Shown here: in pieces, positions 12,367 to 64,000 of the stretch
Position numbering within the stretch: position 1 is the stretch's first letter
How the letters are laid out: every line of letters starts with the position of its first letter
From: Raillietiella orientalis
Lineage: Eukaryota
Length of the DNA: 64,000 nt
Reading direction: 5' to 3'
NCBI GenBank assembly: GCA_036172245.1
Contig: JAYWIR010000029.1
Location: 2,542,001 to 2,606,000 of the forward strand
The notes under the pieces: model-generated
Databases searched by the model: none
What the model was told of the DNA's origin: nothing
The model's input: the letters and a program-made list of their open reading frames with translations, nothing else
Translations under genes and position numbers: made by a program

Positions 12367-14158
12367 ATGATGAGTGATTTGTTCTGTGATTACTTCAACA
12401 TAACAAAGTGTCAACCTGGTGTCAATGAACAAGGTTGTAAGGGAAAAGTAAAGTGTCCCAGAGTTGAATTGGACAAGCGCAATCATTGTTATGCTTTGTG
12501 GAATTCCTTGAAACCTGATCAGCATATTGTTCAGTTTAAAGTACATATTTTCTCTCTTGTTTCCAAATGGGTTATTATTTTAATTTTGGTTATGCTTGTC
12601 AAAAAACTGAACCAGTTTATTTCATTCTTAAGATTAAGATTTCAGTTGACAGGGAAAAATGGAAAATAGGGATTGAGTGTGAACAGATGGAAAGAACAAA
12701 ATACTATTATGTTTCTACTATAGCCCTATTTTTCAAAGGGATGCTGGTTCGATGACCGCACTTGTTATGGAAGGCTTCAGTGTGTAGCAGAACAACGTGG
12801 AAAGCACAATTTTTTCTTCTGTTGCTGTGATGGTAATTTGTGCAATAGAAATTTCTCCTATGTTGGTCCAGTAACATCTGTACCTCTATCTCGTAAGCAT
12901 ATTCCTCAGACAAGATGTCGTTATTAAAATAAATCATCAGCTCCTCTCTTAGTGTCTGAATACACAGATTGGGTAGCCTTTCAGAGAAAGCCACTAGCCA
13001 TCATTATGTATTCTTTATTGCCTTTGGTATTGTTGGTTATCATAGTTGGATCAGCATACTGGTGGTTACGTAATAAAAAATTAAGACAGTTTCACGAATT
13101 GCCTACATCTCCATCTGCCAGTCAAATTCACGAAGCTGAGTTACCTATCCATTTGCTTGAATTAACTGCACATGGCAGCTGTGCTTCTGTTTGGAAAGCC
13201 CAACTCTATGATCGTCTTGTGACGGTGAAAATATTCGAATTTCAGGTAAAATTACTTTAATATCGATTCAATTGGTATGCATTATTTTGGTAGGATATAA
13301 ATTTTTGGAAAAATGAATATGAAGTTTTTACGATCTCCCAACTTCAGCATGCCAACGTGCTTCAGTTTTTGGCTGCTCAACAAAGACCTGGGACACAATT
13401 CTGGCTTGTGACAGAATTCTGTGCCCTAGGTTCCATCTATGATTACCTCAAGGTTTGAAATTTTTTATACCTCATGTTCTTGACAAGTCTTACAGGGCCA
13501 TACTCTAAGTTACTGCCGTCTTATGCACATGGCATATGCTTTGAGTTCTGGTTTGGCGTATCTGCATCAGGAAATTCTTCCCAAACCTTCTATTGCTCAT
13601 CGAGACATTAAGTCAAGCAATATCCTTCTACGATACGATTTAACACCTTGCATAGGAGACTTTGGCTTGTCTCTTGTGTTTCATTCTGGTCAAAGTATTG
13701 GTGAAACACATGGTCAAGTTGGCACACGACGCTATATGGCTCCAGAAGTTCTGGAAGGTGCTATCCAGTTCAGCTGTGAATCATTTTTGCGGATTGATGT
13801 GTATGCATTTGCTTTGGTACTGTGGGAGCTAGTGAGCCGGTGCTCAGATGTTCTTGGAGAAGATCCCAAGCAGTACTTCTTGCCTTATGAATTGGAAATA
13901 GGCAGCAATCCCACTCTAGAAGATATGCAGGAATTAGTGGTTCAGCGTCGTTATCGCCCTATTTTTCAGAATTCGTGGATGCAGCATCCTGTAAGAATTG
14001 TTTTTTGTTACACCTTGTGTGATCATGTTTTGAAGGGTCTGGCTGTATTTTGTGAGACAATTGCCGATTGCTGGGATCAAGATGCAGAGGCTCGACTCAC
14101 AAGTTCCTGTGTACAGGAGCGTCTAAAAGAGCTTCTGCAGGATTGTAGCAATTCCTAG
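12367..14158 (+). CDS. ACVR2: Activin/TGF-beta type II receptor Ser/Thr kinase (punt/ACVR2-like); 5' end unresolved
   Basis: Exons 12367-12540, 12739-12892, 12941-13245, 13294-13452, 13496-13990 and 14036-14158 join in frame across GT-AG introns. Ectodomain has HCYALW, KGCW and the CCCDGNLCN Cys box. One TM helix (AIIMYSLLPLVLLVIIVGSAYWWL) and no GS box. Kinase motifs: VWKAQL, HRDIKSSN, IGDFGL, GQVGTRRYMAPEVLEGAI, FLRIDVYA, CWDQDAEARLT. Confidence 0.93.
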
Positions 14159-43900: not shown

Positions 43901-46164
43901 TCTAGACCGCCGTCCCGGCGTGGAGCACGCAAGTCCTTCAGGCGGAGTCGGGGCCTCATTTGCTCCAGAGGGCGAACAAAATCAGGGGTGGTCAGAAGGA
44001 GGGGTGTCACGAACGTGTTCCGCACCGCGGCCCGTTCCGGCAGGTAAAACCTGAGGTCTCTGAAACTCCAGAAACGCTCTCCTTCTTGAGAACAAGCCGT
44101 CGCTGGAACGACCAGCGACAGCTTGTCCTCTGGCACAAAAAAAAAAAAAAACGAATGTGACCGTGTGGCGCGCAAGGTAGTGGAATGTCGCTCGGGGAGA
44201 TTTTCCTCGAGCCCGGACCTCTGGCAAGGCTTCCAGAGGGGCGAACGCCTAGCGAGCTGCGCAGAAAAAAAGCAAAAAGCAGGAAAAGAGCAGCTCCCGG
44301 TTGCAGAGAGGAAGATCCGGAAAGTGGCCACGGGGAAGCAAAAAGGCTCGTGGAGGATTTCCCCTGGCAACATCAAGTAGACGAAGAAAAATCTTCGTGA
44401 TGGATGGAGGCGGTGGACCACGTCAGCCCTACTTCCCGACTGGTGGCCCTACGTCGGGACACGGCACGCCTCCGTAGGGTGATCCCTTCCCGTCCTGAAA
44501 TCCTCCTCAGGAACCAGGGGCAAACGCGAGAGAAGCGGTGCCACCGAGAACCGGAAGTCTCTCGGGAGCTGGAAGAGCAGTGACCCACGATTCTTTCCCT
44601 TGCGTGGAGGGAGAAGGAGACGTTCTTTGTCCACTGGAGCTGGCTGTCGTCGGTGCCGTCGGCGCAGCGCCATCTGGCGGACACCGAGCTGCTCGAGCTG
44701 TTCCCGAGGGTTAAGGATTCCCCAAGGCGGAGGGACGAAGGAAGGAGATGCAACAGCTCCCGTGCTCCACTCGGAGGAGGACCAGGATAACCGCGAGTTC
44801 CTCTCCCTTCCTTCCCTTTTCCCAACGCTCCGCGCATCCCGCTCTCTTGGTTACTTCCTTCCTGCACCGCTCCCACTGAAGGGGTATCTCCCGGGGTCAA
44901 TCCGAGGCCTCTCTGAGGCAGGGCATTGCCTTCTGCTACCTGGAATGTAGTTTGGGAATGAGAGAAGGATTGTAGGTCCCCGACCTGCGCTCCTGAGTTC
45001 CGAGGAGGAGAGCTATTCTTCCCGATGGAGTCTGGATTCGTCGGCTGAAGACGAGGGGGAAGGGAAGTGTCCTGATCCTTGAGCTGGTGGCGTCGTTTCT
45101 GGGAGACTGCGCTGACACAGGATGCCCTATCGGGACGTAACCTCGCACCCCCGGGCGCGGGAGGAGGGAAGACTCTTGTCTGCGGAAAAACCCTTTCGCA
45201 GAGAGTGGGACGGGACCGAAGGGGAGAGAGAGCGGCGGCGTTCTCGCCACAGAGAAGGACGCGAGAAGGACGACGCGCGAGGGCGTCGGGCTGCTCCCGG
45301 TAGTCCCGGGGGCAATCGTCGACCACCCTTTCGCTTTCTCGTAGAGGGGGAGGAAGGGGGAGGGGTACGGAATGAAGGTGGTGGAGGCGCTGCAGCTTTT
45401 TTCTCCCTCTCCCCCCGCCTTCTCCAACGCCCGGTGGGCGGAAGCGCCGAAGGCGGTTGCGGTGACCGGACGGCTCTGGCCGGGCATTCCTTGCATGGCG
45501 CCGGCGCGCCGCATGGCCAGCTCGGCCGGGACGCATCGAAGGCGGGGACGACGGGCAGGATGAGGGAAGAGAGGAGAAGGGGCGAGGTTCGGGATCCGCG
45601 GCACCACGCGCCCCCGACCCTCTCGTGATCGGTTCCGCCACGGCGAACCCTCTCTTTCTCTCTCTCTCGCGGGCGCGCTCGACTCAGCTGGCCGCCTGAG
45701 GCGCTCGCCCTCCCCTCAGCGACGGCTCTCTCTCTCGTGTACGCTCCTCCGCGGAGATGGCAGCACCGGCGGCGACCGCGGAAAGGGCCGCGGCGCGCCG
45801 CCGCCGTACGCGCATACCTTTCCCGCGCAGTGACCGGTGAGGTCGCGCTGCGGCAACCCGGTGAGTGTCGTGCTCCCGGGTCCTGCTCCCGCCCCTCCTG
45901 CACTCGCGGTTGTGAGCTGGGCCCCTGAAGCCCCCGCCATCGTTTTGGCGACCAACTGACGAAGCCTCGCTCTCTCTCCGTAAGTACAGCGCTGGCCGGG
46001 GAAGGGGGGAAGCGAAGGGTGCGGGGCACGGCAGGTTGGACCCAGCCCGTGCAGGGCTCTCCCCATCCCTCCCCTCTCGCGTCCCCCCGCCCGGGGGTCC
46101 GCAGCGCTCTTCACACGCGGCTCTTTCCTCTCCTCCCCATCTCAGAGAGGGAGCGTCCCTGAAG

Positions 46165-49014
46165 ATGCCGGCCGCCTGCCACAGCTTCGTGCAGAACGCC
46201 TGGCGCAAGGACCTCTGCTCCAACTGCTTCCGGCCCAGGAAGGAGCACGGGCTAGCGCCTGCTCCGGAGGCTTCCCGGGACGGGCCGCACGTCACCACGG
46301 TCTACCAGACCGCCAACTACGGCTCCTCCTCCCGGGGCACCTGCTGGGCGTCCGGGAAGCTGCAGCTGTCCGTGAAGCCGTCGGCGGCGGTGAGCCGCGG
46401 CGCGGCGGCGGGCGAGGACGACCGCCAGAAGCCCCGCCCCTCCTGCCGCGAGGGCGTCGGGTCCGCAGCCGTCCACATACACGACTGCGCCGGCGTCCTC
46501 CTGCGGGTGGGCAAGGTGCCCAGCCGGGAGAAGCGCGTGAGGTTCGCCGACGGAGCCCCGGAGGTCATCGGGTTTGGCGGCGGCGACGACGATGACGGCG
46601 ACGAAGAGGACGTATCCGGAGGCGAGGAGTCCAAGGCGACCAGGCGCTCGCCGGACGAGAAGGAGGAGGAGGAGGAAGAGGAGGAGGAGCGGCCCTCAGA
46701 GGCGCGCGCCGCAGGCGGCAGGACGCTCCAGCAGGAGGTCCGGGAGCCACGACCTCTCGCCAGCAGGAAGAATCCCGTCCAGGTCAAGGTGCACCCGGTC
46801 ATCCCGTTCGTGAAGCTGGAGGAGAGGGTCTCCGAAGGAGAGGAGGGGAAATCCTCCGATCCGGGACCCCTGTGCTCCGAGCCGGACGAGGCCGGTAGCC
46901 GGGAGGGACCGCCGCCCCTCCTGGAGCAGGGGTCCTCCGTGCCGGACGCGCCCTCTGGCGAGGCCGTACCCCTGTCCAGCTTCGGGTCCGGGAGGGCGGC
47001 GTACCTGTTCACGCGGGCGGAGACGCTCGCCGCCCCCAGCGAGGACATCCCGGAGGAAACGAGTGCGTCCTTCCGGTTCTACGGGTGTGCGGAGCACGCA
47101 CCGGTCTGTGGCGTCCCCCACGCGCCGGACGAGCCCAAGAGCTCCCTTGAGGAGGAGTCCTCCTCGGGCACGGAGAGCCCACCCTTCCCTGGCCTCGAGC
47201 ATCCGGCCCGGGCGGTGGGCCACAAGCCGACCCGGCCCTTGGCCCGGTCGCAGGCCAAGGCGGGGCGGCTGACGTACCTCAAGAGGATGCTCATGGGCAC
47301 TAGCCGCTCGCAGGGCAGACCGGACCGCCCCCCGGTGCCTCCCCGGGTCAAGCCGGAGATCATCCACCCCCTGGACCTGACTGGCCTCGGCGTGCAGATC
47401 ATCTCCAGCAGCAGCAGCAGCTGCTGCCGCGGCGATTCGCTCTTCCCCGGAACGCCCTCTGCCGGCGCCTTCGTCACTTTCTCGGAGGTGGGTGAGGGCG
47501 GGACGGGGGAAGGCAGGAACGAGGGAACCTCGCCCTGCCAGACGGTCGAGCAGAGTGGCTCTCCCGATAGCGACCGCGCCTCCAGGGTCCCTGCGCGGCC
47601 TCCGCCTCCCAAGCAAGAGCTCCTGGAGAGGCTGCAGGTGGATGATGACCCTGCGGGAACCGCTCCCCCCGCCTCCACGGAGTACGCCAACCTCGGTACG
47701 TGCGTGGCGCAGGGAGAAGGGGACGAGAGCCTTCCCCCCTCCCCCTCTTTTCAGGCGACGCCCGTTCCTCCCTGGCGCCGAAGAAGCCGGAGAGAGGCTC
47801 CAGCCTGAGAGACGTGGACCGGGAAGAACACGCGAAGCGCCGCGCGCCCCAGCCTCCAGGAGGTGCCCACGAGAAGGTAGCAGAGACGTGGGAAGGGGGC
47901 GCAGTCTTCTTACCTGACCTCCCGCTGCATCCTCCAGAGGGGGTCTCCCATCCTGACCTGCCGCTGGCGGAGCCTGAGCTGGGGACCACGCCCCCCACCC
48001 GCCACCCTGCAGGAGGCCCACGCCGGGGTGACCAGCGCCGTGCACCAGTCGCTGACCTACGTGCTGGAGCAGGTGACTGGCGCGCATTCCCCTTTTCCGC
48101 GACGACTCCTCTTCCCCCAGGTCTCCCAGCTCCGCTGCTCTCACAGCTGCCCCAAGCGCATCCGACGCTGCGACAGGCTGGAGTTGTCCATGTTCGGTCT
48201 GCGCCCGGGGCCACCTTCCCTCCGGGCCGGAGAGAGAGCCTTCTTCGCGGCCAGCTGGGAGGAGCAGAGCCTCGTGCTGCTGGTCAGTCAGGAGCCCGTG
48301 GCCGCTATCTGCTCTGGCTGCAGCAGCTGCCAACCCGCTCCGCTGGTGACCTTCCGCGACCTGGCGCCCGCGGCCCTCCTGCAGGAAGCGCCCTCCCCCG
48401 GACTCCGCCTCCCCGTCTCCGTCACCGTGATGCCCGTACTCCGCGTCGTTCCTCTGAGGCAGTTCTGCCTGGACCTGTCCTCCTCCGAGGACTCCCTGCC
48501 CGACCTCGCCTTCCTCCTCCTCCAGCTGGTCTGCGTGCTGAAGGTGGTCCAGGCCCAAGGGGTCGAGGAGCTGGACGCCGACCTACAGGACCTGGTCCTG
48601 GCGTTCGAGAGCCGGGAGTACCCACCCCGCCTCTACCTCTTCCTGGACGAGCCTCCCCGATCCACGGCCACCCCCAAGGTCTCCCTCTGCCAGTGCGCCC
48701 TCTCTGTCCTGCGCGCCGCCGTCCCTGGACGCGCCCCGCCTGCGTTCGCCGCTGTGGTGGGCGCGCTGCAGGAGGAGCGCTCTGGGTCTCTCACTAAAGC
48801 CAAGACCCTCCTGGAGCTCTTCCTGTGGGGGCCCGACTTCGGAAACCCGTCCCTCAACATAGCCCGGTGGCTGGACGTGGAGAGGGCAGACGTCCTGGCG
48901 GAGTGTCTGAGGCCCCCGGGCTTCTCCCAGCGCAGCTGGACCGTGGTCGACGAGTTCTTCCTTCTGTTTCTCGTGCGCACGAGTGCTGCAAGCATCAAGG
49001 AGATGTGCGTCTAA
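46165..49014 (+). CDS. PEAK1: PEAK1/SgK269-Pragmin(SgK223)-like pseudokinase scaffold
   Basis: Exons 46165-47695, 47755-47876, 47938-48072 and 48121-49014. N-terminal MPAACHSFVQNAWRKDLCSNCFRPRKEH matches the PEAK1/PRAG1 N-terminal C-x-F..W...C.NCF..H motif. A long acidic/proline-rich linker follows. C-terminal signatures FLLLQLVCVLK, AKTLLELFLWGP, WLDVERA and FLVRT. No recognisable VAIK, HRD or DFG. Confidence 0.82.
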
Positions 49015-49343: not shown

Positions 49344-50806
49344 GACCTCACATTTGTTTTCATCCAGGAAGGCCAGGAGAAGATGGTTAGCTGGTTCCAG
49401 GTCCAGCAGAGAGGAAAGGGGACTGTCCCTTTTCTGTAATCCTCCTGCCTTCTTCGCGTCCCTCCGCAGAAGGTGGAAGCTCCTAGTCGCCTGCCGCACG
49501 CTCTTCGCTTCCTTGAAGATACGGGGGATTGGTGCGAGAGTGCATCGCTCGGACCAACCCAGACATCTTGCAGCATAGCATCCCTATCTCCCTTCCTTCT
49601 TTTGTGGAACGAGGTGGTCGCTGCCGTCGTCTCGAAGATACGCGGCTACCCGGGTGGTGGTGACGTGCGGCAGCCCACTTTACGGTCCCTCCTTCCGGGG
49701 CAGAAGGCAGGAGAGAGCGGACGAAAAAAGGATCGAGATCCCTGAGGAGCGTAGGGGTCTCTCACTTTTTAGCTGCTCCTGCCCTGAGTGACCCAAAGGG
49801 GACTGCGAGGAGCCGGATGGAGACTCGTTGGTCGGGTGGGGTTCACCGATGGGGGGCGGGGGCTGGATTGGCCTCTTCGTAACTCGTACCTGCAAAGATC
49901 CCCTCCAGGTCCTTCACCACCAGGTCTCTTCTCATGGTCCAAGCTCCAAGGTCAGACCTTTATCCTCCTCCATCTCTCCCGAAGGCCTCTCGGAAGCTAC
50001 TCATGCTCCCTCGCCTCTTTCGGGGAGGCTCCTTGGCAACCGGCTTCGGGGAAGAGGAGCCAGGCATCCCTGGATGCGCCTTCCATCTGGAGAGAGAAGG
50101 AGGGCTTAGGAGAGCCGTTCCCTTCTTCGCCGGGAATCTCCCGCACCGTCTCTCCCCAGCTGGACCTCGGAAACGCTGCCTGGTTTCCTCCCGAAGGGAA
50201 TCCCCTTGCGACCCCGTCCGTATGTGAGACAGGGCGAGGGCGGGAACGCGCGCGCCGCGGTAAGGTCATTCCTTCCTTTACCATCTTCCCGGCCCTAGCC
50301 GGACACGCCGACTCGCATGGCCGGTCCTTGCAGGCTTGGGCCTCTGGTGTTGACTGATATCAGGAAGGGTGAGGGCCTCTTCCTTCCTTCATCCCCCACC
50401 CCACTTTTCCAGAACATTTCCACGAGGACACCCCTCGTCCCCTTCCCGTAGACGCGGACGCTATTGCACATCTTTCTGAGACCAGTTGCTCGGCAACGGG
50501 TGCTGAAGCGCGGACCCCTGGTTCCGGGAGGACTCCTGCAAGGTATGCACGATCCCGTTTCACGGGAGTCGTACGATTACACTCCCGGGAGACCACAGGG
50601 ACGCCGTTCGGGACGAGCGAACGGGATCGGCGCGGATGCTCTCCCGCAGGCGACGAGGACGCGGGTTCCCGGAAATCGATACGTGAAGGTTTCCCTCCTT
50701 GCGTTGCCGGAGCAACCGGGTGGGGAAACCGAAGGCCGGGGCCGCCGCCACTCGCAGACTCCTCCGGAAAACGACTGTGTGTGCCCAGTGGCTGCTCCTC
50801 CGAGAA

Positions 50807-53800
50807 ATGAAGGCGGGAGAGAGCGTCACCGTCGCCATCAGGATCCGTCCTTTCATATCCTTTGCTGGTGACCCCTGACCCGATCCTTCTCCCCCCTCGC
50901 AGTTCCCCTCTCTCGATCTCGCCGGCGTGGACTAGAAGGCGCTGATCCCCCACCCGTGGGTCTCCTCCTCCCCCCTGTGACGTCATGAGCGCGCGCGCGC
51001 ACCCTGGTCGCTCTCCTCCTTGCTCGGCTCTTCGGGCGACTTCGCGTGCGCGGTCCCCCCCCCCCCCTACCATTCCAACCGGGAGGAGCAACGAGGAAGT
51101 CTTTCCAGAGTTGGACCCTCCCTTTCCCGCTCCCAGGCCCATTCCTCGGCTCTTCTCGGGACTTTTCAGCCGGGAGAGCGAGATCGGCTAAGCGAACGGC
51201 GGTCAGGAAACGGTGGGGGAGAATAGGGAATGGGAAAACAGGCCAGCCAGGAGGAGGAACCCTATCCTCGCGCAAGTATCGTCCTCCTTCAGAAAGGCCC
51301 CTCCCGAAGACAGGAAGGCAGGAGGTGCGAAGACCCCACGGTCAGCGCACCCAGGAGGTTTCCTGCTTCCCGCCGCCGGGATCCTCACTTCACATCCGTG
51401 ATGGGAGGGGGAGGGAGAAACGGCAGTATGATTCTCCGGGATCGTTTCCTGGTCGACTTCGCTCCTTTCCTCCCACGCATGAGGAAGGCGGACGCGCGCG
51501 GTGGTGAGAGATCGCGCGCAGGGAACGAAAGTGTATGGGTCGGCCCCGCGGATGACTCACCCGTAGTTTCCCGGATCTAGCTCCTCCTGCCAGCGCCCTG
51601 CGCGGACGTCTGGTTCTCACAGGGAAGAGGCGAACCGGGGGTCTCCTTCCTCTCCCCTCCAGAGGGCGCTCCCTGAGCCCGCAGCGCGAGGGAGAGGCGC
51701 CGGGCAGCGGTGACCTCCTGACACGTCTGCCGCAGGCAGCATACACATCTCCGGACCCCGCGCGGAGCAACATGGCCGTGCGATGCTTCCACCCACCTTT
51801 TCGCCCCCGGGTGCAGAAACTCCCGAAAGTCCCCTCGCATCCCCATCCCACCCCTAAAAACGAGAAAGGAAAAAAAGGGTGGGAGAGGAAGGAGGTCCGG
51901 ATGGGTTTCCTTAACGGGAGATCACAGCAGCCGAGAGATCGAGCGGAAGGCCAGGTGTGTGGTGCAGATCGACGGGCAGGTCATCTCCCTCAGGGATCCC
52001 AGCAGGCCGAACGAGCAGGTCAAGTCGTTCTCCTTCGACCACGTATACTGGTCCCACGACGGCTTCGTCGTCGACCCCAGCGGATACTTCGTCCCCGACC
52101 CAGACCACGTGAACGGTCACAAGTACTGCGACCAGGTAGGGACACCCCTTCGGGGTGGTGTTTTCCGGGTTTGGGAAGCCACGTTGCCGGGCGCACCTTT
52201 CCCACCTTCTACCGGAAGAGCTCGCAGACTCAGCCCGGTCGCGCGTCGCCCTCCGGCGAGGCCGAGAGGACTCTCTCGTTGACGACGGCAGCACTGCCTG
52301 CCGGGGGAAACCTCCGTCCCGACGTCCCGGGACCCCCTCTCGAACTCCTCCTCATCCCCGTCCGGATGCTCTGCCACTGCGCGGGGAGGCCCGCATCGTT
52401 GGGAGACGGATCCTCGGAGCTGCTCCTCCAGTTGCATCCGCGCCAGGGCGGCAGCGCGCGTTCCCCTCGGTGCATCCGAGGATACTGCGGCGCGGACGCT
52501 CGCAGCCTCCCCGGCGCCGGGGAAGACCCCGTCCTCCCATCTCCCCGCTCCCCTTGGACTCTCCCTGCTCATCGGAACGTGGCAAGGGGAACCACGAAGG
52601 GTCGCTGCCGGGGAGCCCCACTCGTGTTTCTGGGGAGAGGGTCGTCCCGTCTTCTGGACCGCTCCTGAAACGATGCCCACACGCCCGAGCAGTGGCACTC
52701 CCACCACGTCCGGCCGAGGGCGCCGGACCTCCGGACCGCCCCTTCCTTCCTCTGACTCGCGTCGGAGATGACCCCCCGCGGTGCCGAAAGCGAGGGCTTG
52801 CGGCGGGTGGGTGGGCGGAAGGCAGGAATTTCTCCGGGTCGTCGCCTCCTCCCCCTCTCTCCCCCCGCGGAGGGACAGGGAAAGTGAATACCGACTCCCG
52901 GGAGGCTCGGTTTCGCGCCGAGCTTGTCCCGTAGCATCCTGCGGTCGCACCTTTGGGGCTCGTCTCTGGGTTCGGAAGAGATGAGTGGTGACCAAGTCGG
53001 AAAGGGGCGCGGCGGAGAACCGCTAGGGCGATTGTGCTTGCCCACGCACTTTCAGAGACGAGATCAACGGGTGTCGCCTCCGCCGCAGGTGATGACCTCT
53101 GCTCACGCGTGCGCCATCCCGGGCTTTCCTTCTCTTCAAAGGGAGCGGATAGGCGAGGAGGAAAGTGCGGAGCAGTGGGAGAAGAAGGGGGAGTAGCCGG
53201 GGAGGGAATCTCCCGGACGACGGGAAGGGGGCAGGAATTTATAGGAGGCAGGTGCGGAACTCGCGTCTCCAAGGCTTTCCAGAGTGCCACCGCGCGGCGT
53301 GCGGAGGCCGCAGTCGTTCCGAATCCGTCAGCATCTAACGGCGAACCTGAGAACGAAAGAATCATAGCCCCCTGCTGTCGTCGGCATGCGCGCGATCCGC
53401 ACGCCAAGTGCGTGCACGCTGCCTCGTGCGCCTTCCGCCTGTCCACGCTGCCATTATGCTCCGCGCGGTTTCCCGCCCCTCCCCGGAAACGAGAGAACCG
53501 TTAAGTCCAGGCAACCATAAAAGCAGGGTGGCCATAAAGCGGGCTCCAAGAGCTTCCTCAGAATGGTAGTCTCCCGGCGGACGGATGAACGCAGTTTCCC
53601 GAAGGTGGTTTTTCTGTCTTGCCTCCAAAGACGAGCCTCCAAAGACGATGAGGAAAGCAAACACGGCAGGGGAACTTGGAGAGAGACGGCAGCTTTGCGA
53701 GAAGGAAAGAGCGAAGCAGCGGAAGGCGGTCCGGACACAGCTCGGCATGGCGTCAACTCCCGAGGGGCAAGGGGTTCCGGGAAAGAAACGCACCAGTTCG

Positions 53801-56800
53801 GCTTCGTTCGATCATCTAGTTGTCGAGCATGGTGGAGGAGGGAAAAAAGCTCCCTGCTCCTCCACCTTCTTCTTAAGGAGGAGAAGGATCGATTCTTTCC
53901 TCCTCATCCTCACCCTCTTCATTTTCCTTCTCCTCCTTTCCTACTATCCTTCTCTTCCGCCTCCTCATCCTCTTCATTTTCCTCCTCATCCCCTTCCTCT
54001 TCTTTATTCTCATTCTCCTCTTTTCCTTCTCCTTTTCATTCCCATCTTCCTCCTGCTCTCCCATCTCACCCTTTTTTTTCGCGCTCGGAGGAACCTCCAG
54101 ATCTTCGCTTTCATGCCTCTCTGCGGCGCAGGACCGCATCCCGAGGAAGACGGAAGGGCCCTCAGGAACCTCCAGGAGAAAAGGAGGGAGAGAGGAACAC
54201 GTCTTCTCTTTTCCTTGGCTCCCACGCACGATCCGGGAACCTTCGGAGAAGGCTTGCTATTGTTCCTCGGCCACTAATGCCCCCTGGGGATTGCTCTCAG
54301 AGGCCCGCGCAGCTCCGCGCAAGGAGCGTCCTTCTCGAGCGCCCTTGAGCGCAGCGATCCGGGAAACGGTTCCCCGCCCCACACTCGGGACGCAGCTCCG
54401 CACGGGGGAGTTTGCCTCCCTGTTCCCTCATCCTCCGCCTCGACCAGCTCCGTCTTTTCCCACCTCTCTCCCTTTCCAGAAAAGGATCTTCGCTGATTTG
54501 GGCCGCCAGCTGGAGAGGAATGCATGGGAAGGCTACAACTCCACCCTCTTCGCCTACGGGTGCACAGGATCTGGGAAATCCTACTGCACGATAGGCTACG
54601 CGCCCAACTTCGGTAGGTCGGGATCCTCCTTCCCTTCCGGTAGAGGCCCACATGAGGCCCTTCTCCTCCCAAGGGATCCTGCCCATGTTCCTGGAAAACC
54701 TGTTCTCGGAGATCCAGGCCAGGAAGGTGGCTAGGAACTCGACCCAGTACGAGGTTCACTTTAACATGCTGGAGATCTACAACGAGGTTGTCTTCGACCT
54801 CTTGAACCCCGTGAAGGGCAAGAAAGGGCTGAAGATTCGCGAACACCCGACCAGGGGTTTTTACGGTGAGTCCGCCCCGTCGGCGTAGATGCTGCGACGG
54901 TGCGCCTCCCCCCCCCCCCCCCAGCCGAAGGGCTGAAATCCGTGCTGGTGTCTTCGTACGAGGAGCTCAAGTTCCGCATGGAGGAGGGCATCATCAACCG
55001 CACGATTGCCGCCACCAAGATGAACGCGCTGTCGTCCAGGGCGCACACGATCGTGCAGATCGTTCTCCTGCAGAGGTTCGAGAACGCGGAAGGCCAGGAG
55101 ACGGTGAAGACGTCGGTCACCAACATCGTGGACCTGGCCGGGAGGTGGGGGCCGGGGAAAACGGGGAGGCTCGGGGACTCAGCCCCAGCCCCTCTCCCAC
55201 CCTCACAGCGAGAAGATCGTGCAGACCGGCGCCGAGGGCAGTCGCCTCAAGGAGGGTGTGTCTATCAACCACTCGCTCCTCTGCCTGGGAAACTGCATCC
55301 ACGCCCTCGCCGACAACTCCGCGGGAAAGCACGTAGGTAGAGCGGCTGCCGGCGGGAGGTCCAAAGGGGCGGCGACCTCTCCCGGCGAGCCACCCTACTC
55401 CGCTTTTGCTTTCGTTCCCGGATGAAGGTCAGGGTGCCCTACAGGGACTCGGCGCTGACCAAGCTGCTCATGAACGCGCTCGGCGGCAACAGCAAAACCA
55501 TCATGGTGAGTCGGCGTCACGCTCGCTGGACCGCAACCCGCGGGCGTCTTTGCTTGCAGCTCGGCACTATCAGCCCGGCGGACTTCCACTACGAGGACAC
55601 GCTGTCTACCCTGAGATACGGTGAGCTCCCCCTCGCGCGCGCACTCGCGCGCGGGCCGTCGCTCCCCGTGCGGGGAAGGCGAGGGAGAGGCCGTAACGAG
55701 CGCAAATTCCCTCTGCCTCGAGCATTCCCGACGGGCGGTCAGCTCGCCGCCGCCCGTTGCGTCCGCTCCCTGAATGGTCTCCTTCTTTCTTCTTCCAAAC
55801 GAGCAGGCACCTCTATCAGGAATCGGACCTGCCTCCGGAGAGACAGGTGGCTCTGCAGCGGGGAGGCGGCTTGGGGTCGAGAGGGTCTCTGCGAGGCCTC
55901 CTCGGAAGCCACGTCCACCAGGGGGCAGCCTTGGAAGCACCTCGTAAACGTTCGACAGTGTGGCACGCGTGATGCGCGGATTCGTGAAAGGAGGGAAGCG
56001 CAGAACGCCTGGAGCAAGAGGTGATCCTCCCAATGCGGCGACACTTCCGAAATCTCCTTCACGAGATTCACCCGCGTCTCTCTTGCCAGAGTTCTTTTTT
56101 TTTTTTCTCGGAACGTTGAAGACGAAAAGGCTCTTCCTGGGAGATCACGAATCGCCGTGATGGTGCTGTCCGGATATCAAGGAAGAAAACGCCTCGCAAG
56201 GACAGGCGTTTAGGCAACCTGGGCGTTTTCCATGGGAACGGCGGTCTCTCAAGGAATCCGTGGTTTGCTGAAGTCCCAAATTCTCAAGCAAGTTCCCAAG
56301 ACGATAAAGTGCTCTGGCGTATCTTCATATCTGCCTCCTCGTGGGAATCATCATTGCATATCTCTGGCGAGTCGCTCCTAATAATCCATCTTGCATACTG
56401 TGTCATCCGGAGGATGACCCAAACTGTGCGTCCGATAAATGCCCCGACTGTGCTGTACGCAGGAAGCGACTATCAACTTTCTCATTTTTTCTCCGTACAC
56501 TTTGATCTTAGACAAAAGGCTTTTCTTACGAAAGTGTGTCTTTAAAATTCAGTCTGCTATTATGAGGCGACTGGCAAGAGTAGCAACAGTTTTTTTTCTT
56601 TTCTTTGTTTGCGTCACGCGTTTACTTCCTACAGTAATGCTGCTATAATTTACATATACTGTAATCGTTTACAGCTTTGGAAAATTCATTCTTAACATTG
56701 TAATTTAATAGCAACTTCACTGCTTTCTTTTATTGTATTTAATGTTTGTACAGACGACGGGGCTGCAAAGGATCGCGTTGGTTTCGTACGTGCGGCGAGT

Positions 56801-59800
56801 TTGCGCCACGTCCTTTTCGCTCGTTTGCGCACGCGCGCGGCTGCGACGAGAGCGACTCCATGATGCGATCCCCGCAACGAAAACCGAGGAAGAGGGGGAA
56901 AGAGAGACTTCTAATCAAAGGAGGAGGAGGACGCACTCCGTGAAGTCGTCATTTCGAAGAGGTTCGTCCGCTGCGGTAGCAGCATCCGCGCTCTCCCTGC
57001 TCTGCCTGCCGTTCCCCAGTAGGGGCCGCCGAATCGATCTCCCGGCACGGCCCAACCCGGACCACCACCTCACCTGCTGAAGGAACCGCGCACGTCTCCA
57101 AGAACAGCCGCCGCTTGGCCTCGGCTCCGCCGGACAAGACATCCCGCTTTTTTTTCCTTTTTTTTTTATTATCCTGGTCTCTCCTTCCACAGAGGAAGGG
57201 AGAAAGCCGGTTTCCGCGATGGTGAGGAGGCTGCACCTCCTCAGGCTGCACGCTGGTCGGACCCCACCGATAACCGGTCCGAATTGGCGGTCGTGAGGCT
57301 GAGGCTGCTGCCGCACGCGGAGAGACACCAGGCGTTGCGGGTTCGAACCCCACCCGGGGAAGGGTTGGCGCCAAGCGTTGTGGGGAAGAGGCGCCGAGAA
57401 CGGGGATTGCGCCGTGGGCTTCGATTTCTCCCCGCAAGATGACTCTGGTTGGACCGCGGGTTTCGGGTGCGGCGGCACTGGTGGAAACCCCGGATCCTCC
57501 CGTCTACTGACCGCCATGGCCTCCAGGGTCCTTCCAGGAATCGAGGAGCCCTTCGGGTTCCCCTATGGTTGTGGAGATGAAACCGCGGTACCATGGAGCT
57601 GGTCGAAACCCCTCCCCTCGGGGGTGCCTCTCCAGGGCGTGAAGTGCGCTGCTCACTTCGGGGAGCGCCTTTCAGGGAAACTTGGAAGCGTCCCTTCAGG
57701 GTTCCCTTGAAAGGAAGAGTAAAGAAGGGGCGGATCCTTTCCGGGTTCCCTTCGGAGAAGAGACGACGAGCGACTCCCTACGGGTGGTCCCTCCGGAGAG
57801 AACAAGGAATAGGTTCCTTTCGGAGCTCCTTCCCACTCCTAAGGGGAACGGACTCCTCCCTCCGGAGCCTTCCTGGATTCACAGGGTGGTCTCCATGGGG
57901 TTGTCCCTTAAGTTGGAGAGTTAAATATTCACCCTCGGGTGGTGTAGACAATGTCAAAGAGCTTCGTGATCCCCCCGCAAGGAGGAGAACGGTTCTTCAG
58001 CACTTGGCGGACCGACAGAAAAAAAAGAAAACCCGAAGAAAAAAAAAAAAATGGGTGTTGCGGCAACCATGGAGAAATTAAGCCTCCGCGCTTGCTGACA
58101 GGGATCGGCGGTTCCAATCCTTGGACTTCCTGCTGTCTTCGAAGGGTTGCCGTAGATGTTCGAAGACTACTCACTCCCCAGGGCATCGGAGTCTCGCGCG
58201 CCCGTCCAGAAAGGCGCACCCCTCCGGGAAGCAGTGAAGGCAACGAGACTCGCATCCTTTTACGAGACGCAGAGAGCCAAGGAGAGCCATTGCGGAGGTG
58301 CAGGAGCATCCTCGCCTGTGCATTCCGTGGTCACGTTCTGCTCCCTCCTCCTTCCTCCTCCTCCTCCACGTCCGACCCTGCAGATTTGTCTTTTAGCCGA
58401 TCGAGCGAAGAAGATCAAAACCATGGCCGTCGTGAACGAAGATCCCACGGAGAAGCTGCTAAGGAAGCTGAAGGACGAGAATGAGAGGCTGAAGTACCTC
58501 ATTAGTAATTCCGTCAGCCTGGACGTGGCGGGCATCTCTGCTGCAACCTCTTCTCAGCCGCTGGACACGTCAGGTGATCCGCTAGCGCTTCTCTGTCCCC
58601 GCTGAACTTGCACCCGTGATCCTCGACCGGAAATCACAGCTTCCCTTTCTGAACCGGGGGGGGGGAGGGAGGCAGGAACGCATCTTTTCCCGGGGAGTAC
58701 CTCGAGTTGCGAGCTGCCGGAGAGTCTCATCCACCAGCGACGTTCCTCCTTCCTCCTCGGGAGTCTTCCCTCGCGTGGTTGCACGCGCCTCCCGCCGTCT
58801 GTCCCGCATACACCCTGTCCTTGGGGATTTCCCGCTCTGCCCCTTGCCCTCCGCAGAGTGCCCCCTCCAGGAGGGATCGGTGGTCCGGCACTTCCCCTTC
58901 CATTCCATTCCCGGGATGGGTGCCCCCTCCCCGGTTGCGCTACCTCCGCGAGCGGTGTGACCCCGCCGAGGGGGGAGGCGCCCCGTTCTCACCCTTCTCA
59001 TCCAAGAGCTGAACGAGTTGCGAGACAAGTGGGAGGAGGAAGCCAAGGCGAACCTCGCCAGCAACGAGACGGAGATGCAGAGGATCAGGCAGTCGTACGG
59101 CGAGAGGCTCTCGCAGGCCTCCCGGGAGACCGAGATCCGGCGGCAGGTCGGTCTCGGCGCCGGGCCGGCAAGGACGTCTCTCCCGCTTTCAGGGAACGGG
59201 GCATCTGAGGGTGAAGGAAGAGTGCAAGACCAACCCGCACATCTTCAACCTCAACATCGACCCCCAGCTCTGCAACCGCCTGGTCTTCGTGATTCCGTTC
59301 GGACAGAGCAAGGTGGGTCACGGCCACAAGAATCCCGTGGATTACGTCATCGTCGGACCGGGGTGAGCACCACCCTGTGAGAGAGCGAGGGGTATTTTCT
59401 GGATTATTCCCTTCCCTCCTCCCCCCTTCGCACACTCACACACTCCGGGATTCCCTTCGCGCGGGAGATGTGACGGCCTCTCCCGCGCCTCAGTCTAAAG
59501 TTGTCTGAGACCGTTGCACTCCCACCTCCTCCTCCTCTTCTTCCTCTTCCTCCTCCTCCTCCTCCTCGCTCTGCCCATCCACCCACCGCTGCCTCTTCCG
59601 CAGTCAGCGGAGCGTGGAGGACGTGGACCTGTCACGCTTCGCCGCCGTGATCGCTGCGCGGCTCGAGGGCGCTCCGATCGAAGAGGCGGGCAGTCGAGAT
59701 GCTCTGCCGAGTTCCGCACTCAGCCGCTCCCTAGAAGGGGGGCGGAAGGCGGCCTCCTCCGTTCCCCCTTCCTCCCTCCGGTTTTCGCTCCTTCCTTCAA

Positions 59801-62800
59801 AGAGTGTCCCCGGCTGCCTCGGGAAGAACCGGGGTGCCGCCTGTTCCCTCCCGCCGCTTCCTCCTCAGACAGCTCGAGGGCATCTACGAGTGTTGCCAAA
59901 CTTCGCGAAGGCTTCCTGAAGCGAGGAGTCGGAACGGGAAGGAAGCAGGGGCACGCGGGCTCTAAGGAGGGAAAGACCGCCAAGGAAGAAGAGGCTGTGG
60001 AATCATCTGAGAGGGAACGAAAAGGGAGAAAGCCGTGGTGCGTGCCTTCATCGGCGTGACCGGCCTTCGACCTGCCCGGCTGTCCCGAGGTCCGTTGTCC
60101 GGACTTCTCTCATCCCAGCCCTTTCCGGATACCAGGAAGAACCGAACGCGCTCCCTCTGCCGCTGCCCCCTGACAACCAGGCTCATCACTCGCCTCCCGT
60201 TCCTCTCTTCGGGCGGCCACCAGCCCCGCCCTCGAAGAGGAAGTGAACGGCAGCGGGGTCGCCGTTCCTCCGTCTCTGGACCGACCACTTCCGAGTGGGT
60301 GCACACACTCCCTTGCAGCGAGGGAAGTGCCTCGCAGGCTGGCTCGACCCCGTTCGCAACTGGTCGCAGCTTTTCTCCGGGGAGCAACCCAAGAGACCAG
60401 AGAGCCGACCGTCGCAAGCCCCGCGCTTCAGCCAGGAAGGACGCGCGTCCCTCCGAGATCGCTCCCTGCCCGTGCGCTCCCCTTTCCGGTTTTGCAGGAC
60501 GCTCACGAAGGCGGTGAGGCACCTAGCACACGCTTGGCGGAGAGAGGCGTTCTGGAGCGTTCCCGGCCGCCAGCCCCGTGACCTGCCTCGTACCGGCGGG
60601 AGCATCCTCGGCCTGCTGCTGCTTCCGTGTCTAAGACGATACATGATTAAGGGGGAAAAGGGGGGGAGATTGGCATAGAGGGGGCGGAGGGAGGCACGGA
60701 AGCTGCCCCCTGGGAACGCCACGTTGCTCTCACAGCCCACCGGATCTCCAGCAAGGCTGTCGGATGCTCTCCTCAAGGCAACCGCGGTTCTCTCTGGATC
60801 ACCACTGTGTGTGTTTCCTTCCAAGCATCCACGAGGTCCACGTCATCTTCTACCGCAACCAGGAAGGACAAGTCTTTCTGCAGCCCGGCAACGAGACCTG
60901 CAGGGTTCTCGTGAACGGCGTGAAGATCAGTTCCTCCACCCAGCTGTTCCACTACGACAGGTCAGTCCCTGCCTCGGCTTTCCTGGGACACCGGGGTCCG
61001 GCGAAGACTCGTTTTCGGGACGACGCAGATCTGGGTGTACCAGAACCCGACGGAGGCGACGACGTCGAGCAAAACCTATCCGGAGGTCACGTACGAGTTC
61101 GTGCAAGAGGAGATCATGTCCCACGGCGGGATAGACCTCAAGGAGAATGCAGGTCAGTGAATGCTTCGAGAACCACGGCGGTATCCTTTCCGCCCCCCGC
61201 AAGGTTACGGGGAGGAATCGGGCAGGCGGAGAACCCGAACCGCCCTCCCCCCTACGGTTCCGTGACCTGAGGATTCTGATCTTTGCAGCTGTTTCGGACA
61301 CATTTCCAATAGGGTTCTCGTTGCGCGATCAGTTTGCCACGCACCCCCTCGCATCGGCAGCGAATTCCTGGTGGGTTCCGAGGTTCCATAGGGGATTTTT
61401 TTTATTGTTGTTCCCGTTGCCGTCCACTCAGCGAAGAGAACTGGTTGCCAAGCGGCCAGCCTTCCTCGTCCCAGGCGCAGAGAGATTTCGTACGGCAGTC
61501 GATCGCACGCACGCCATGGCGCTGTCTGCTCGCGGTTCAGAGCTCAGAGATGCCACGCCGCGTGTCGACCACCGGACATCCGTCAGCCTAGGCCAGAGGC
61601 TTCTCTTATCGTGGTAGCCAGAAAGAACCTTCTCGTTTCCACCGTGCCCGTGGAGCGCATGCGGACCAACATCTATCCTCTTCGGCGGTTCTCTTCGTGG
61701 GCGTTTGTGTGTGTCAGGAGTCGTTCCCTCTATTTGGAGTGTCTTCAGCACATTCCATTTCGAAGATGCTGAAGTGCAATGCTTACAATGGCGGAATGGG
61801 TGCTGCCGCTGTGCACCACGCCACGAAGACTGTGCCCTGAATGAGTCGGTGGAGAACGAGGATGCAGCAAAGATGAAAACACTGTCGAAAGCCCTCAAAA
61901 GAAAAAAAAAAAAGGCATCCTCTACAGATCAAAGATTCATATTAAAGATGGTAAGATTGAGATCTTCATATAGTAATAAGACGGCTGCATCGGAGCCAAC
62001 CTTATGTGGCTGAAACAGTCACAGGGCTGCGACGTACCAGGTGCCTGAGGAAAAATGAAGGGCAACAAATGTCCTGGAGTGGGAACAGATGCCTTCTGGA
62101 ACTTCCGGGCATGGAACTGCTCTCGTTCCAGTCACTCGTAATCACTCTGTGTGTCCGGTCCCAACACTCTGTGTGTTACAGCGCGCGTCCGAACCGTTCC
62201 GGCGCCTTCTCGGGGAATCAAATCTTGATTACTGCAGGGGGCTCCCTCTCCGTGCAGGGGGGGAGAGTAACGAACCTCGGTTGCTCTCGGGGACGCGGAA
62301 CAGGTTACCTGATTCCCCCGAACCACGGTCCGAATCCGGTCGCCAGACGAGGCGCGCTTTCTCTGGGACCAACCGCCAGCAAAGGTGTTCCAAGAACACA
62401 CCCTGAATCGCCGCATCGCCGCAACACAACCCGGGCGCCTCGCTGCAGCTGTGGTGTGCACGCGCCGTTGCGGAAGTAGGATCATCACCCGTCGGGCGAT
62501 CCTCCGCCACTGCGTATTCTGCTCTCGGAATGGCTCGCTAATTGGCAGCGTCCCTCTCTTCTCCTTCGTGCGCCTCTTCGGACAAAGCTGCTGAGCTTTG
62601 TCAGCCGGTGTTCCCAGCTGTACTGGGAATCGCTTAGTGCTCGGATTTTTTAAGGACACTCGAGGAACGCTCCTCATCTCCGGGTGGCAGGAACTGAAGG
62701 GAGTGCTGCTGCTGTTCTTTCAGATGCTTTGTGGCTTCAAGACGATCTTTTGGAACTCATCCCTGCAGTAGAAGAGGCGAACGCCATCTCTGAGGAGTTG

Positions 62801-62869
62801 GACAAGAGAGTCAAGTTCGAAGTGTTGGTGGTGGCTCCGCAGTTCAACAGTAGCAACAGCAACAGCAAG
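50807..62869 (+). CDS. KIF28: Kinesin-3 family motor (KIF28-like) with FHA domain; 3' part continues beyond the window
   Basis: Exons 50807-50854, 51926-52135, 54480-54612, 54674-54865, 54925-55144, 55209-55332, 55428-55505, 55560-55620, 58397-58573, 59007-59146, 59193-59362, 60826-60960, 61007-61152 and 62724-62869 join in frame. Motifs: [89 protein letters not shown] (FHA), [11 protein letters not shown]. Confidence 0.92.
50855..51925 (+). other. U12-type (minor spliceosome) AT-AC intron, first coding intron of the kinesin
   Basis: 5' splice site ATATCCTTT (50855), branch site TTCCTTAAC (51907-51915), terminal AC (51924-51925). Excision gives the in-frame junction [12 protein letters not shown]. 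Confidence 0.92.
53890..54080. repeat. Polypyrimidine/polypurine low-complexity tract ((TCC/TTC)n-like)
   Basis: About 190 nt almost entirely C/T on the + strand, inside kinesin intron 2. A similar shorter tract lies at 59521-59570. Confidence 0.8.
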
Positions 62870-64000
62870 GTAAGAAGAATCCAGGAGCGACCCTCAAAGT
62901 CTGAGCAAGGTAGCAACGCCCCTGAAAGTTGCAGCACACGGTGCACCCAGGTTGCCAGGCGCAGCGCTCCGTGACTGCAAATTCAGGATCAACAGTGCGC
63001 CGAAAGAGCATCTAAACGCGGCGGCAAAAATTTTTCCCCGTTTCTCCGAAATCTTTCCTAAATTCTTCCTCCTCGGTCCGTCGGCCTTCTTTCCATTGAG
63101 GAAGCACTTCGGCTGGAGGATGACACGGGATGGCGTCGGTCGGGGAATACGGATGTCTTGGGGTCGTAGTAGTTCCTGCCAGAGCTCTTCACGGTTTGCC
63201 CATGACTTGCTGATCTGTACACGGGACTCCAGTGGAGGAGTGAAGGCCAGGGTTGGCTGATTGACCCTTTAAGGAGTTTAAGAGAGCGAGTAGCACACCT
63301 CAATTGGAATGACGAGGGAGTCAACCACGGGAGGCAGGGCGGGTGGCGAAGCCGCGCGGACTTTAACCGAAGCCGTTCTTTGTTCACTCCTCCGTTCCCT
63401 CTTCCAGCGAACACGCTGAAACTGGAGGAGACCTCCCAACTTCACGAAGGCTTTCGACGGTAACAGGGAGGTTTCGGCAAAGCGCGAGGAGCAGCAAAGA
63501 AACAAAAAGCAGAGGCGACAACAGCGGAGGACATGAGTTCTGGTGGCTGCAGGCTGGCGACTGGTAGCGCGTGACCCGAGATCGCAGATCGGAAGGCCGG
63601 TTAGCGTGGTCAGGCGAGCTGAGGGGGAACAGGCGGGAAGGAACAGCAACGCGTGTCGGGCACGCTCGTCTGGGAGTCCGTTCCCGTTTTCCTGCGGGAT
63701 CGTAGGGAACCTAGCGCTGCGGTGCGTTTCCGATGGGCGCTACGAATCCGAGCTACCCTACGCGTTGGGATAGGGATCTTCCCCGGCCCCCCGGCCAGCG
63801 GTGCCGATCAAAATCCCCAACGAGCATAGAAAATCAAGCGTACATCTATTATGTATATTAATGTGCAAATTTATTCACCATGCGTCTTTATTGATATACA
63901 CATTCATAGTGATGTTTTTCACACATATATTTATTAGTAATACATTTATATACTAATATACGTACTTGTTTGTAGATTAATGCATATTATAAAGATCATA

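Follow-up and report, generated by a model that had tools for sequence, protein, structure and literature searches.

The window, a stretch of 64,000 nucleotides from the genome of Raillietiella orientalis, carries on its plus strand a gene that similarity and phylogeny identify as a KIF28/KLP-6 kinesin-3 of an arthropod (Table 1). The first coding exon begins at the sole ATG of the stop-to-stop frame 50687-50878 and aligns to residues 2-17 of a Lingula KIF28 protein. It contains the RxRP motif, which has a role in nucleotide binding. The intron after exon 2 is GT-AG, and relatives have one at the same position. The best PDB matches of this exon were KIF1A (E 4e-9) and 7wrg_A (E 9e-8), the latter of which we take to be KLP-6, and exon 5 matched the Pfam kinesin family (PF00225) with an E-value of 2e-14. 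A word-index search with exon 2 gave no match.

Table 1. Features of the KIF28/KLP-6 gene and its first coding intron, in window coordinates.
Feature	Position	Strand	Remarks
First coding exon	50807..50854	+	48 nt from ATG, 16 codons, ends in RxRPF
Predicted U12-type AT-AC intron	50855..51925	+	1,071 nt, phase 0
U12 5' splice site ATATCCTTT	50855..50863	+	
Cryptic GT donor CTG/GTGACC	50868..50873	+	Weak, inside intron
U12 branch-point sequence TTCCTTAAC	51907..51915	+	
3' splice site CAC	51923..51925	+	No polypyrimidine tract upstream
Second coding exon	51926..52135	+	70 codons, no Met
Motor exons 3-8	54480-54612, 54674-54865, 54925-55144, 55209-55332, 55428-55505, 55560-55620	+	All introns GT-AG
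Further exons (neck, stalk, FHA region and beyond)	58397..62870	+	Approximate boundaries, from colinear tblastn matches of five KIF28 proteins

The motor model comprises 390 residues, and the seven introns other than the first are all GT-AG. Five of the eight modelled introns measure 54-95 nt and three measure 1,071-2,776 nt, so the description of a short-intron animal in an earlier, sequence-only reading of this DNA suits the former and not the latter. Alignment to 35 named KIF28/KLP-6 proteins gave the model 407-525 bits, compared with 309-329 bits for five KIF1 proteins. In a tree with KIF1 outgroups, from which KIF13, KIF14 and KIF16 were left out, it grouped inside the arthropod KIF28 branch, where it sits beside two ostracod proteins with weak support (93/82, 90/85) on a long branch (0.59 changes per column). 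Bit scores, tree and PDB matches all agree with the sequence-only reading, which had named a kinesin-3 motor and pointed to KIF28/KLP-6 orthologues for comparison.

The gene runs about 10 kb past the end of the window, and five KIF28 proteins gave colinear tblastn matches throughout, spanning about 840 residues. PF00498 is present in four of these five query proteins; single exons of the window gave no Pfam FHA match. The grouping and the colinear matches liken the window protein to C. elegans KLP-6 and the KIF28/KIF28P family, from which its long branch sets it apart. Six loci were examined for paralogs in the same genome; three of them include the motif region, and these three, the KIF1/unc-104-like locus and two further kinesin loci, lack an intron at the site of the first KIF28 intron. 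The adjoining gene (window 45916-49011, plus strand) consists of long open frames with no Pfam or PDB match, and its start (CHSF...WRKDLC..CF) seems to us to recall the N-terminus of PEAK1/pragmin pseudokinases.

Signals and placement of the first coding intron

The codons CGT CCT TTC end at 50854, and the donor ATATCCTTT begins directly after them at 50855. The branch sequence TTCCTTAAC ends 10 nt upstream of the CAC end at 51925, which places its two A's (51913 and 51914) 12 and 11 nt upstream of the intron end. Compared by eye and by pattern, the donor matches the RTATCCTTT consensus and the branch sequence matches TTCCTTRAC with the expected spacing of about 11-13 nt. The termini are AT...AC and the 3' end is purine-rich. 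PMC3584512 describes U12-class introns as defined by a conserved donor and branch sequence in the absence of a pyrimidine tract, with an optimal branch-to-3' distance of 11-13 nt and with either A able to branch. The intron fits every class feature listed there. Phase 0 is relatively uncommon among minor introns, at about 22% (PMC10639083). Removing the 1,071 nt yields RPF/SSRE and restores the kinesin spacing RxRPF-x-x-RE. The sequence-only reading had described an AT-AC U12 intron right after RxRPF whose removal restores RIRPF-SSRE; signals, length, phase and join are all as it stated.

Canonical animal U12 AT-AC introns, as represented in PMC3584512 and in the Drosophila-human set of PMC2831892, share the ATATCCTTT donor and a TTCCTTAAC element 11-12 nt from the AC. 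They also resemble this intron in lacking a pyrimidine tract and in occurring singly among U2 introns.

We assessed how far these signals could arise by chance. The genome contains 1,677 copies of ATATCCTTT and 1,525 of a reversed control, and RTATCCTT occurs three times on the plus strand of the window. The word by itself is not rare and proves little. A rough order-2 Markov estimate gives a probability of about 4e-9 that donor, branch site and terminus would all coincide by chance with the codon boundary that homology defines. Chance fails to explain the placement of all three signals at this boundary. The other U12-like words in the window (at 13620, 1285, 61181 and minus-strand sites) do not lie at any recognisable coding boundary. 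One of them, GTATCCTTT at 61181-61189 on the plus strand, lies 28 nt into an ordinary intron of the KIF28 gene, after an in-frame stop, and is probably there by chance. A second genomic match to RIRPF/GTATCCT was considered as a possible paralog whose U12 intron is of the GT type and was rejected, because five kinesin queries gave no tblastn match within 30 kb and about one chance match is expected.

Exon 2 opens with AG (51926-51927), so the AC end of the intron adjoins an AG. Use of the resulting AT-AG pair would shift the frame. The same AC/AG arrangement at the border with exon 2 was seen in several of the metagenome loci described below.

Predicted minor splicing and competing joins

An Rfam search of the genome returned all four minor-spliceosome snRNAs above their cut-offs. 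U12 gave one match (98.7 bits), U11 gave two (best 80.9 bits), U6atac gave 14, of which 12 exceeded the cut-off (best 91.3 bits), and U4atac gave four, of which three did so (best 69.5 bits). The recognition boxes of these snRNAs are complementary to the signals of the intron. Predicted duplexes, computed without a shuffled control, comprise 6 bp between the U11 5' end and the donor, 6 bp plus flanking pairs between U6atac and the donor, and 8 bp between U12 and TTCCTTAAC. A U11/U12-25K-like gene matched PF18036, presumably the family of the U11/U12 25K protein, with 78.2 bits, and PDCD7 gave a marginal match of 27.6 bits, just above its cut-off of 27. Judged by these homologs, the minor spliceosome is retained in this genome, as the sequence-only reading had supposed, and its retention in an arthropod is no surprise. 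Several of the 14 U6atac and four U4atac matches are probably retrocopies or fragments. One U6atac copy is followed by an A run and has a weak U4atac match some 600 nt away on the opposite strand (G000:C19:2292919-2293741, L003).

We regard it as nearly certain, from its signals and relatives, that the first coding intron of this KIF28/KLP-6 gene is an ordinary U12-type AT-AC intron of ancient origin. The minor spliceosome of R. orientalis almost certainly uses the 50854/51926 junction. In this model, the U11/U12 di-snRNP would recognise ATATCCTTT and TTCCTTAAC, and U6atac would then take over the donor from U11. Either of the branch A's would attack the 5' end, and the AC 11-12 nt downstream of them would serve as the 3' end. 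Exon 1, with its 16 codons, would be joined to exon 2 without adding or removing any residue. A transcript that retains the intron reaches an in-frame stop at 50876..50878 (plus strand) and encodes a peptide of 23 residues. Every full motor would therefore depend on minor splicing.

The alternative is that the major spliceosome removes a GT-AG or GC-AG intron from a donor at 50868 or 50864 to an AG between 51887 and 51949, and that the U12 signals are vestigial. The sequence-only reading had held that the canonical join shifts the frame. This is correct for the GT donor at 50868 with the CAG acceptors only, but six in-frame joins exist: the same donor with GAG at 51887, 51920 and 51935, and the GC donor at 50864 with AGs at 51937, 51943 and 51949. 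Automatic prediction could thus yield an N-terminus that is in frame but wrong. Conversion of U12 to U2 introns by way of a cryptic U2 donor close to the U12 donor has been described (PMC3584512). However, each of the six acceptors reads GAG or AAG and is preceded by 1-10 pyrimidines in 20 nt, against 13-19 for the seven ordinary acceptors of this gene. The donor at 50868 lacks G at +5, that at 50864 is GC, and each of the six joins alters the length or deletes the conserved R of the x-x-RE stretch. The motif is present in 87 of the 120 public KIF28 proteins examined, and 86 of these have just the spacing that results from the AT-AC join. Vestigial U12 signals, moreover, would not be expected to remain perfect. 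We consider removal by the major spliceosome very improbable.

The intron in other KIF28 genes

We compared the intron position with that in relatives, a comparison the sequence-only reading had proposed. An alignment of 26 exon-2 sequences was used to collect 80 metagenome loci, the best 80 of 295 confirmed. In 22 of them, both intron ends lie at the identical phase-0 codon boundary, and the intron is of the U12 type (21 AT-AC and one GT-AG). In each of these complete introns, which range from 84 to 2,289 nt, RPF is directly followed by RTATCCT, which reads ATATCCT in the 21 AT-AC copies, and a branch site precedes the terminal AC (21) or AG (1). Another 10 of the 80 loci show the 3' end only; all end in AC and nine have a branch-like motif. 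The 32 intron-bearing loci represent 24 distinct acceptors, and one group of relatives accounts for several of these. None of the 80 loci showed a U2-type intron at the boundary. Of the remainder, 45 have no intron at the site, two fall outside the classifier and one begins inside exon 2. Both loci outside the classifier have an extra intron that splits exon 2 (L061:3431-4436 and L073:780-920). Inspected by hand, L061 has a U12-like 3' end before exon 2.

The sole GT-AG copy among the 22 complete introns, in locus L074, reads GTATCCTT...CCTTGAC...CAG. It occupies L074:9647-9994 (348 nt, from GTATCCTTTT through CCTTGAC to CAG) in a divergent lineage. The sequence suggests an apparent switch of the intron to the GT-AG subtype in this one lineage.

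The organisms behind the metagenome loci were assigned from trees built on 61-396 residues. The first tree, of 51 of the 80 loci, drew long branches together, and a second was built with 15 loci and KIF1 outgroups. In the rebuilt tree, L079 and L089 are flagged as a possible long-branch join. Intron-bearing loci adjoin Oculina (L033, 99/82), Ruditapes (L022 and L062, 100/99) and Pecten (L065, 100/84). The KIF28s of molluscs and of corals each fall into two paralog types, both of which include intron-bearing loci. The division into these two types has only moderate support (88/74), with some loci contributing no more than 61-70 residues. The presence of the intron in both paralog types, in molluscs and in corals, suggests that it probably predates both the KIF28 duplication and the cnidarian-bilaterian split.

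Ten of the 45 intron-free loci are clearly genomic, with a GT right after the next exon. In the first tree, the eight of these that it included clustered with Tigriopus and Lepeophtheirus (SH-aLRT 98), and all three included in the rebuilt tree again fell with copepods (100/100). This pattern reads as precise loss of the intron in copepod-like lineages. Most of the other 35 intron-free loci may be mRNA contigs or come from intron-poor organisms and say little about loss; a few of them are long contigs without an intron at the site. Canonical animal U12 AT-AC introns, too, are conserved over long times, are now and then lost precisely and rarely switch to the GT-AG subtype.

Protein sequences carry independent traces of the same boundary. 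Of 150 phmmer matches to exon 2, 49 translate upstream DNA as coding, a few of them mis-anchored by the pattern used. H or Y, the residues encoded by CAC and TAC, stands just before exon 2 in 34 of these 49 read-through proteins. A few residues before this H or Y there is often S-L-T or F-L-N, which corresponds to an in-frame reading of TCCTTAAC. The nearest named exon-2 proteins include KIF28s from a barnacle (88% identity), a mussel (83%) and corals (76-79%). The vertebrate-like KIF28 proteins P0094, P0123, P0142 and P0072 (from a tegu lizard) have no H or Y before exon 2, and in three of the four a Q codon two residues downstream resembles an acceptor. Going by these protein sequences alone, vertebrates may have a U2-type intron shifted by two codons.

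Public KIF28 models and the significance of the intron

The sequence-only reading had predicted that GT-AG annotation would mispredict the N-terminus, and this tendency is borne out in models from other species. We surveyed the 120 best KIF28 matches, of which 82 are annotated in NCBI or UniRef and 38 come from assemblies or other collections only. The RxRP motif is missing from 30 of the 82 annotated proteins, compared with two of the 38 assembly-only proteins and six of 101 annotated KIF1 controls (Fisher p ~2e-7, for rows that are not independent and a control drawn mostly from vertebrates and insects with better annotation). One of the six KIF1 controls scored as motif-less does carry the motif. 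Of the 30 motif-less annotated KIF28 proteins, 28 begin inside the exon-2 region and two have a foreign N-terminus. Biomphalaria, Patella, Tachypleus and Darwinula are among the genera with short models. A first exon of 48 nt is easily missed whatever the class of the intron that follows it. The AT-AC ends are the likely cause of the missing motor start in many KIF28 models.

Some transcripts might instead skip the 16-codon exon, through an alternative first exon or a start in exon 2, and the short KIF28 models would then be real isoforms. Models that begin inside the exon-2 region make up 28 of the 82 annotated proteins, and some are labelled isoform X1. The scarcity of motif-less proteins in the assembly-only set argues against such isoforms, as do three models (P0158, P0187 and P0193) with intron read-through or a garbled join exactly at the site. 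In the window, exon 2 offers no start codon, and the first Met beyond it is already past the P-loop. Loss of the first strand would probably keep the motor from folding. We judge real isoforms an unlikely explanation and retain misannotation as the preferred one. It would represent a likely systematic and correctable error in public KIF28 models.

On balance, we lean towards the view that KIF28/KLP-6 genes carry an unremarked U12 AT-AC intron older than the cnidarian-bilaterian split and the KIF28 duplication. This intron would be absent from lists centred on human and mouse, lost in copepods, switched in subtype at least once, and perhaps replaced in vertebrates by a shifted U2 intron; it would also be what leaves about one third of annotated invertebrate KIF28 models without the first motor strand. 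If this view is correct, the set of genes connecting minor splicing with cilia would gain a ciliary motor. The intron would also be one more ancient minor-intron position missed by human- and fly-based lists.

Slow minor splicing of the first intron could, as the sequence-only reading had suggested, set the output of this putatively ciliary motor, which would account for the long retention of the intron. A retained intron leads to a dead end of 23 residues, and the position has been kept in many lineages. Minor introns in general are proposed to be rate-limiting (PMC3584512), C. elegans KLP-6 is described as a ciliary transport motor (PMC12646758) and minor-spliceosome defects are reported to affect cilia in vertebrates (PMC9992838, PMC13216214). 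Against this, the gene works without the intron, because the genomic loci that group with copepods have none. AT-AC introns convert rarely and long conservation is normal for them (PMC2831892), and a broad survey favours neutral processes and persistence (PMC10639083). A regulatory role is therefore doubtful in our estimation. A gene that keeps the intron in most groups, lost it in copepod-like loci and has a GT-AG form in one offers a natural comparison between regulation and mere persistence.

The class of the intron, its mechanism and its presence in an arthropod are all well known and would not surprise a specialist. A minor intron in KIF28 was not found in the literature searched, though the MIDB, IAOD and FigShare tables may well list it as an unremarked row. 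Species with a correctly annotated KIF28 junction may already have the intron in such catalogues. Human KIF28P is classed as a pseudogene, which would help to explain the absence of KIF28 from human minor-intron lists. The host gene differs from those of canonical U12 sets in being absent from their supplements, as far as these were searchable: those of PMC10639083, PMC2831892 and PMC7367187, which are small and hold no full catalogues, contained no kinesin.

KIF6 is kinesin-9, and KIFAP3 is the accessory subunit of kinesin-2. These two were the only kinesin-system genes in the searched human and mouse minor-intron tables of PMC6717393, and the searched supplement of PMC11347168 listed only KIFAP3/kifap3a. 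Minor introns thus occur in mouse and human KIF6 and KIFAP3 and in zebrafish kifap3a, which belong to the kinesin system but are genes other than KIF28. The KIF6 donor listed in those tables of PMC6717393 is of the GT subtype, in contrast to the AT donor of the KIF28 intron.
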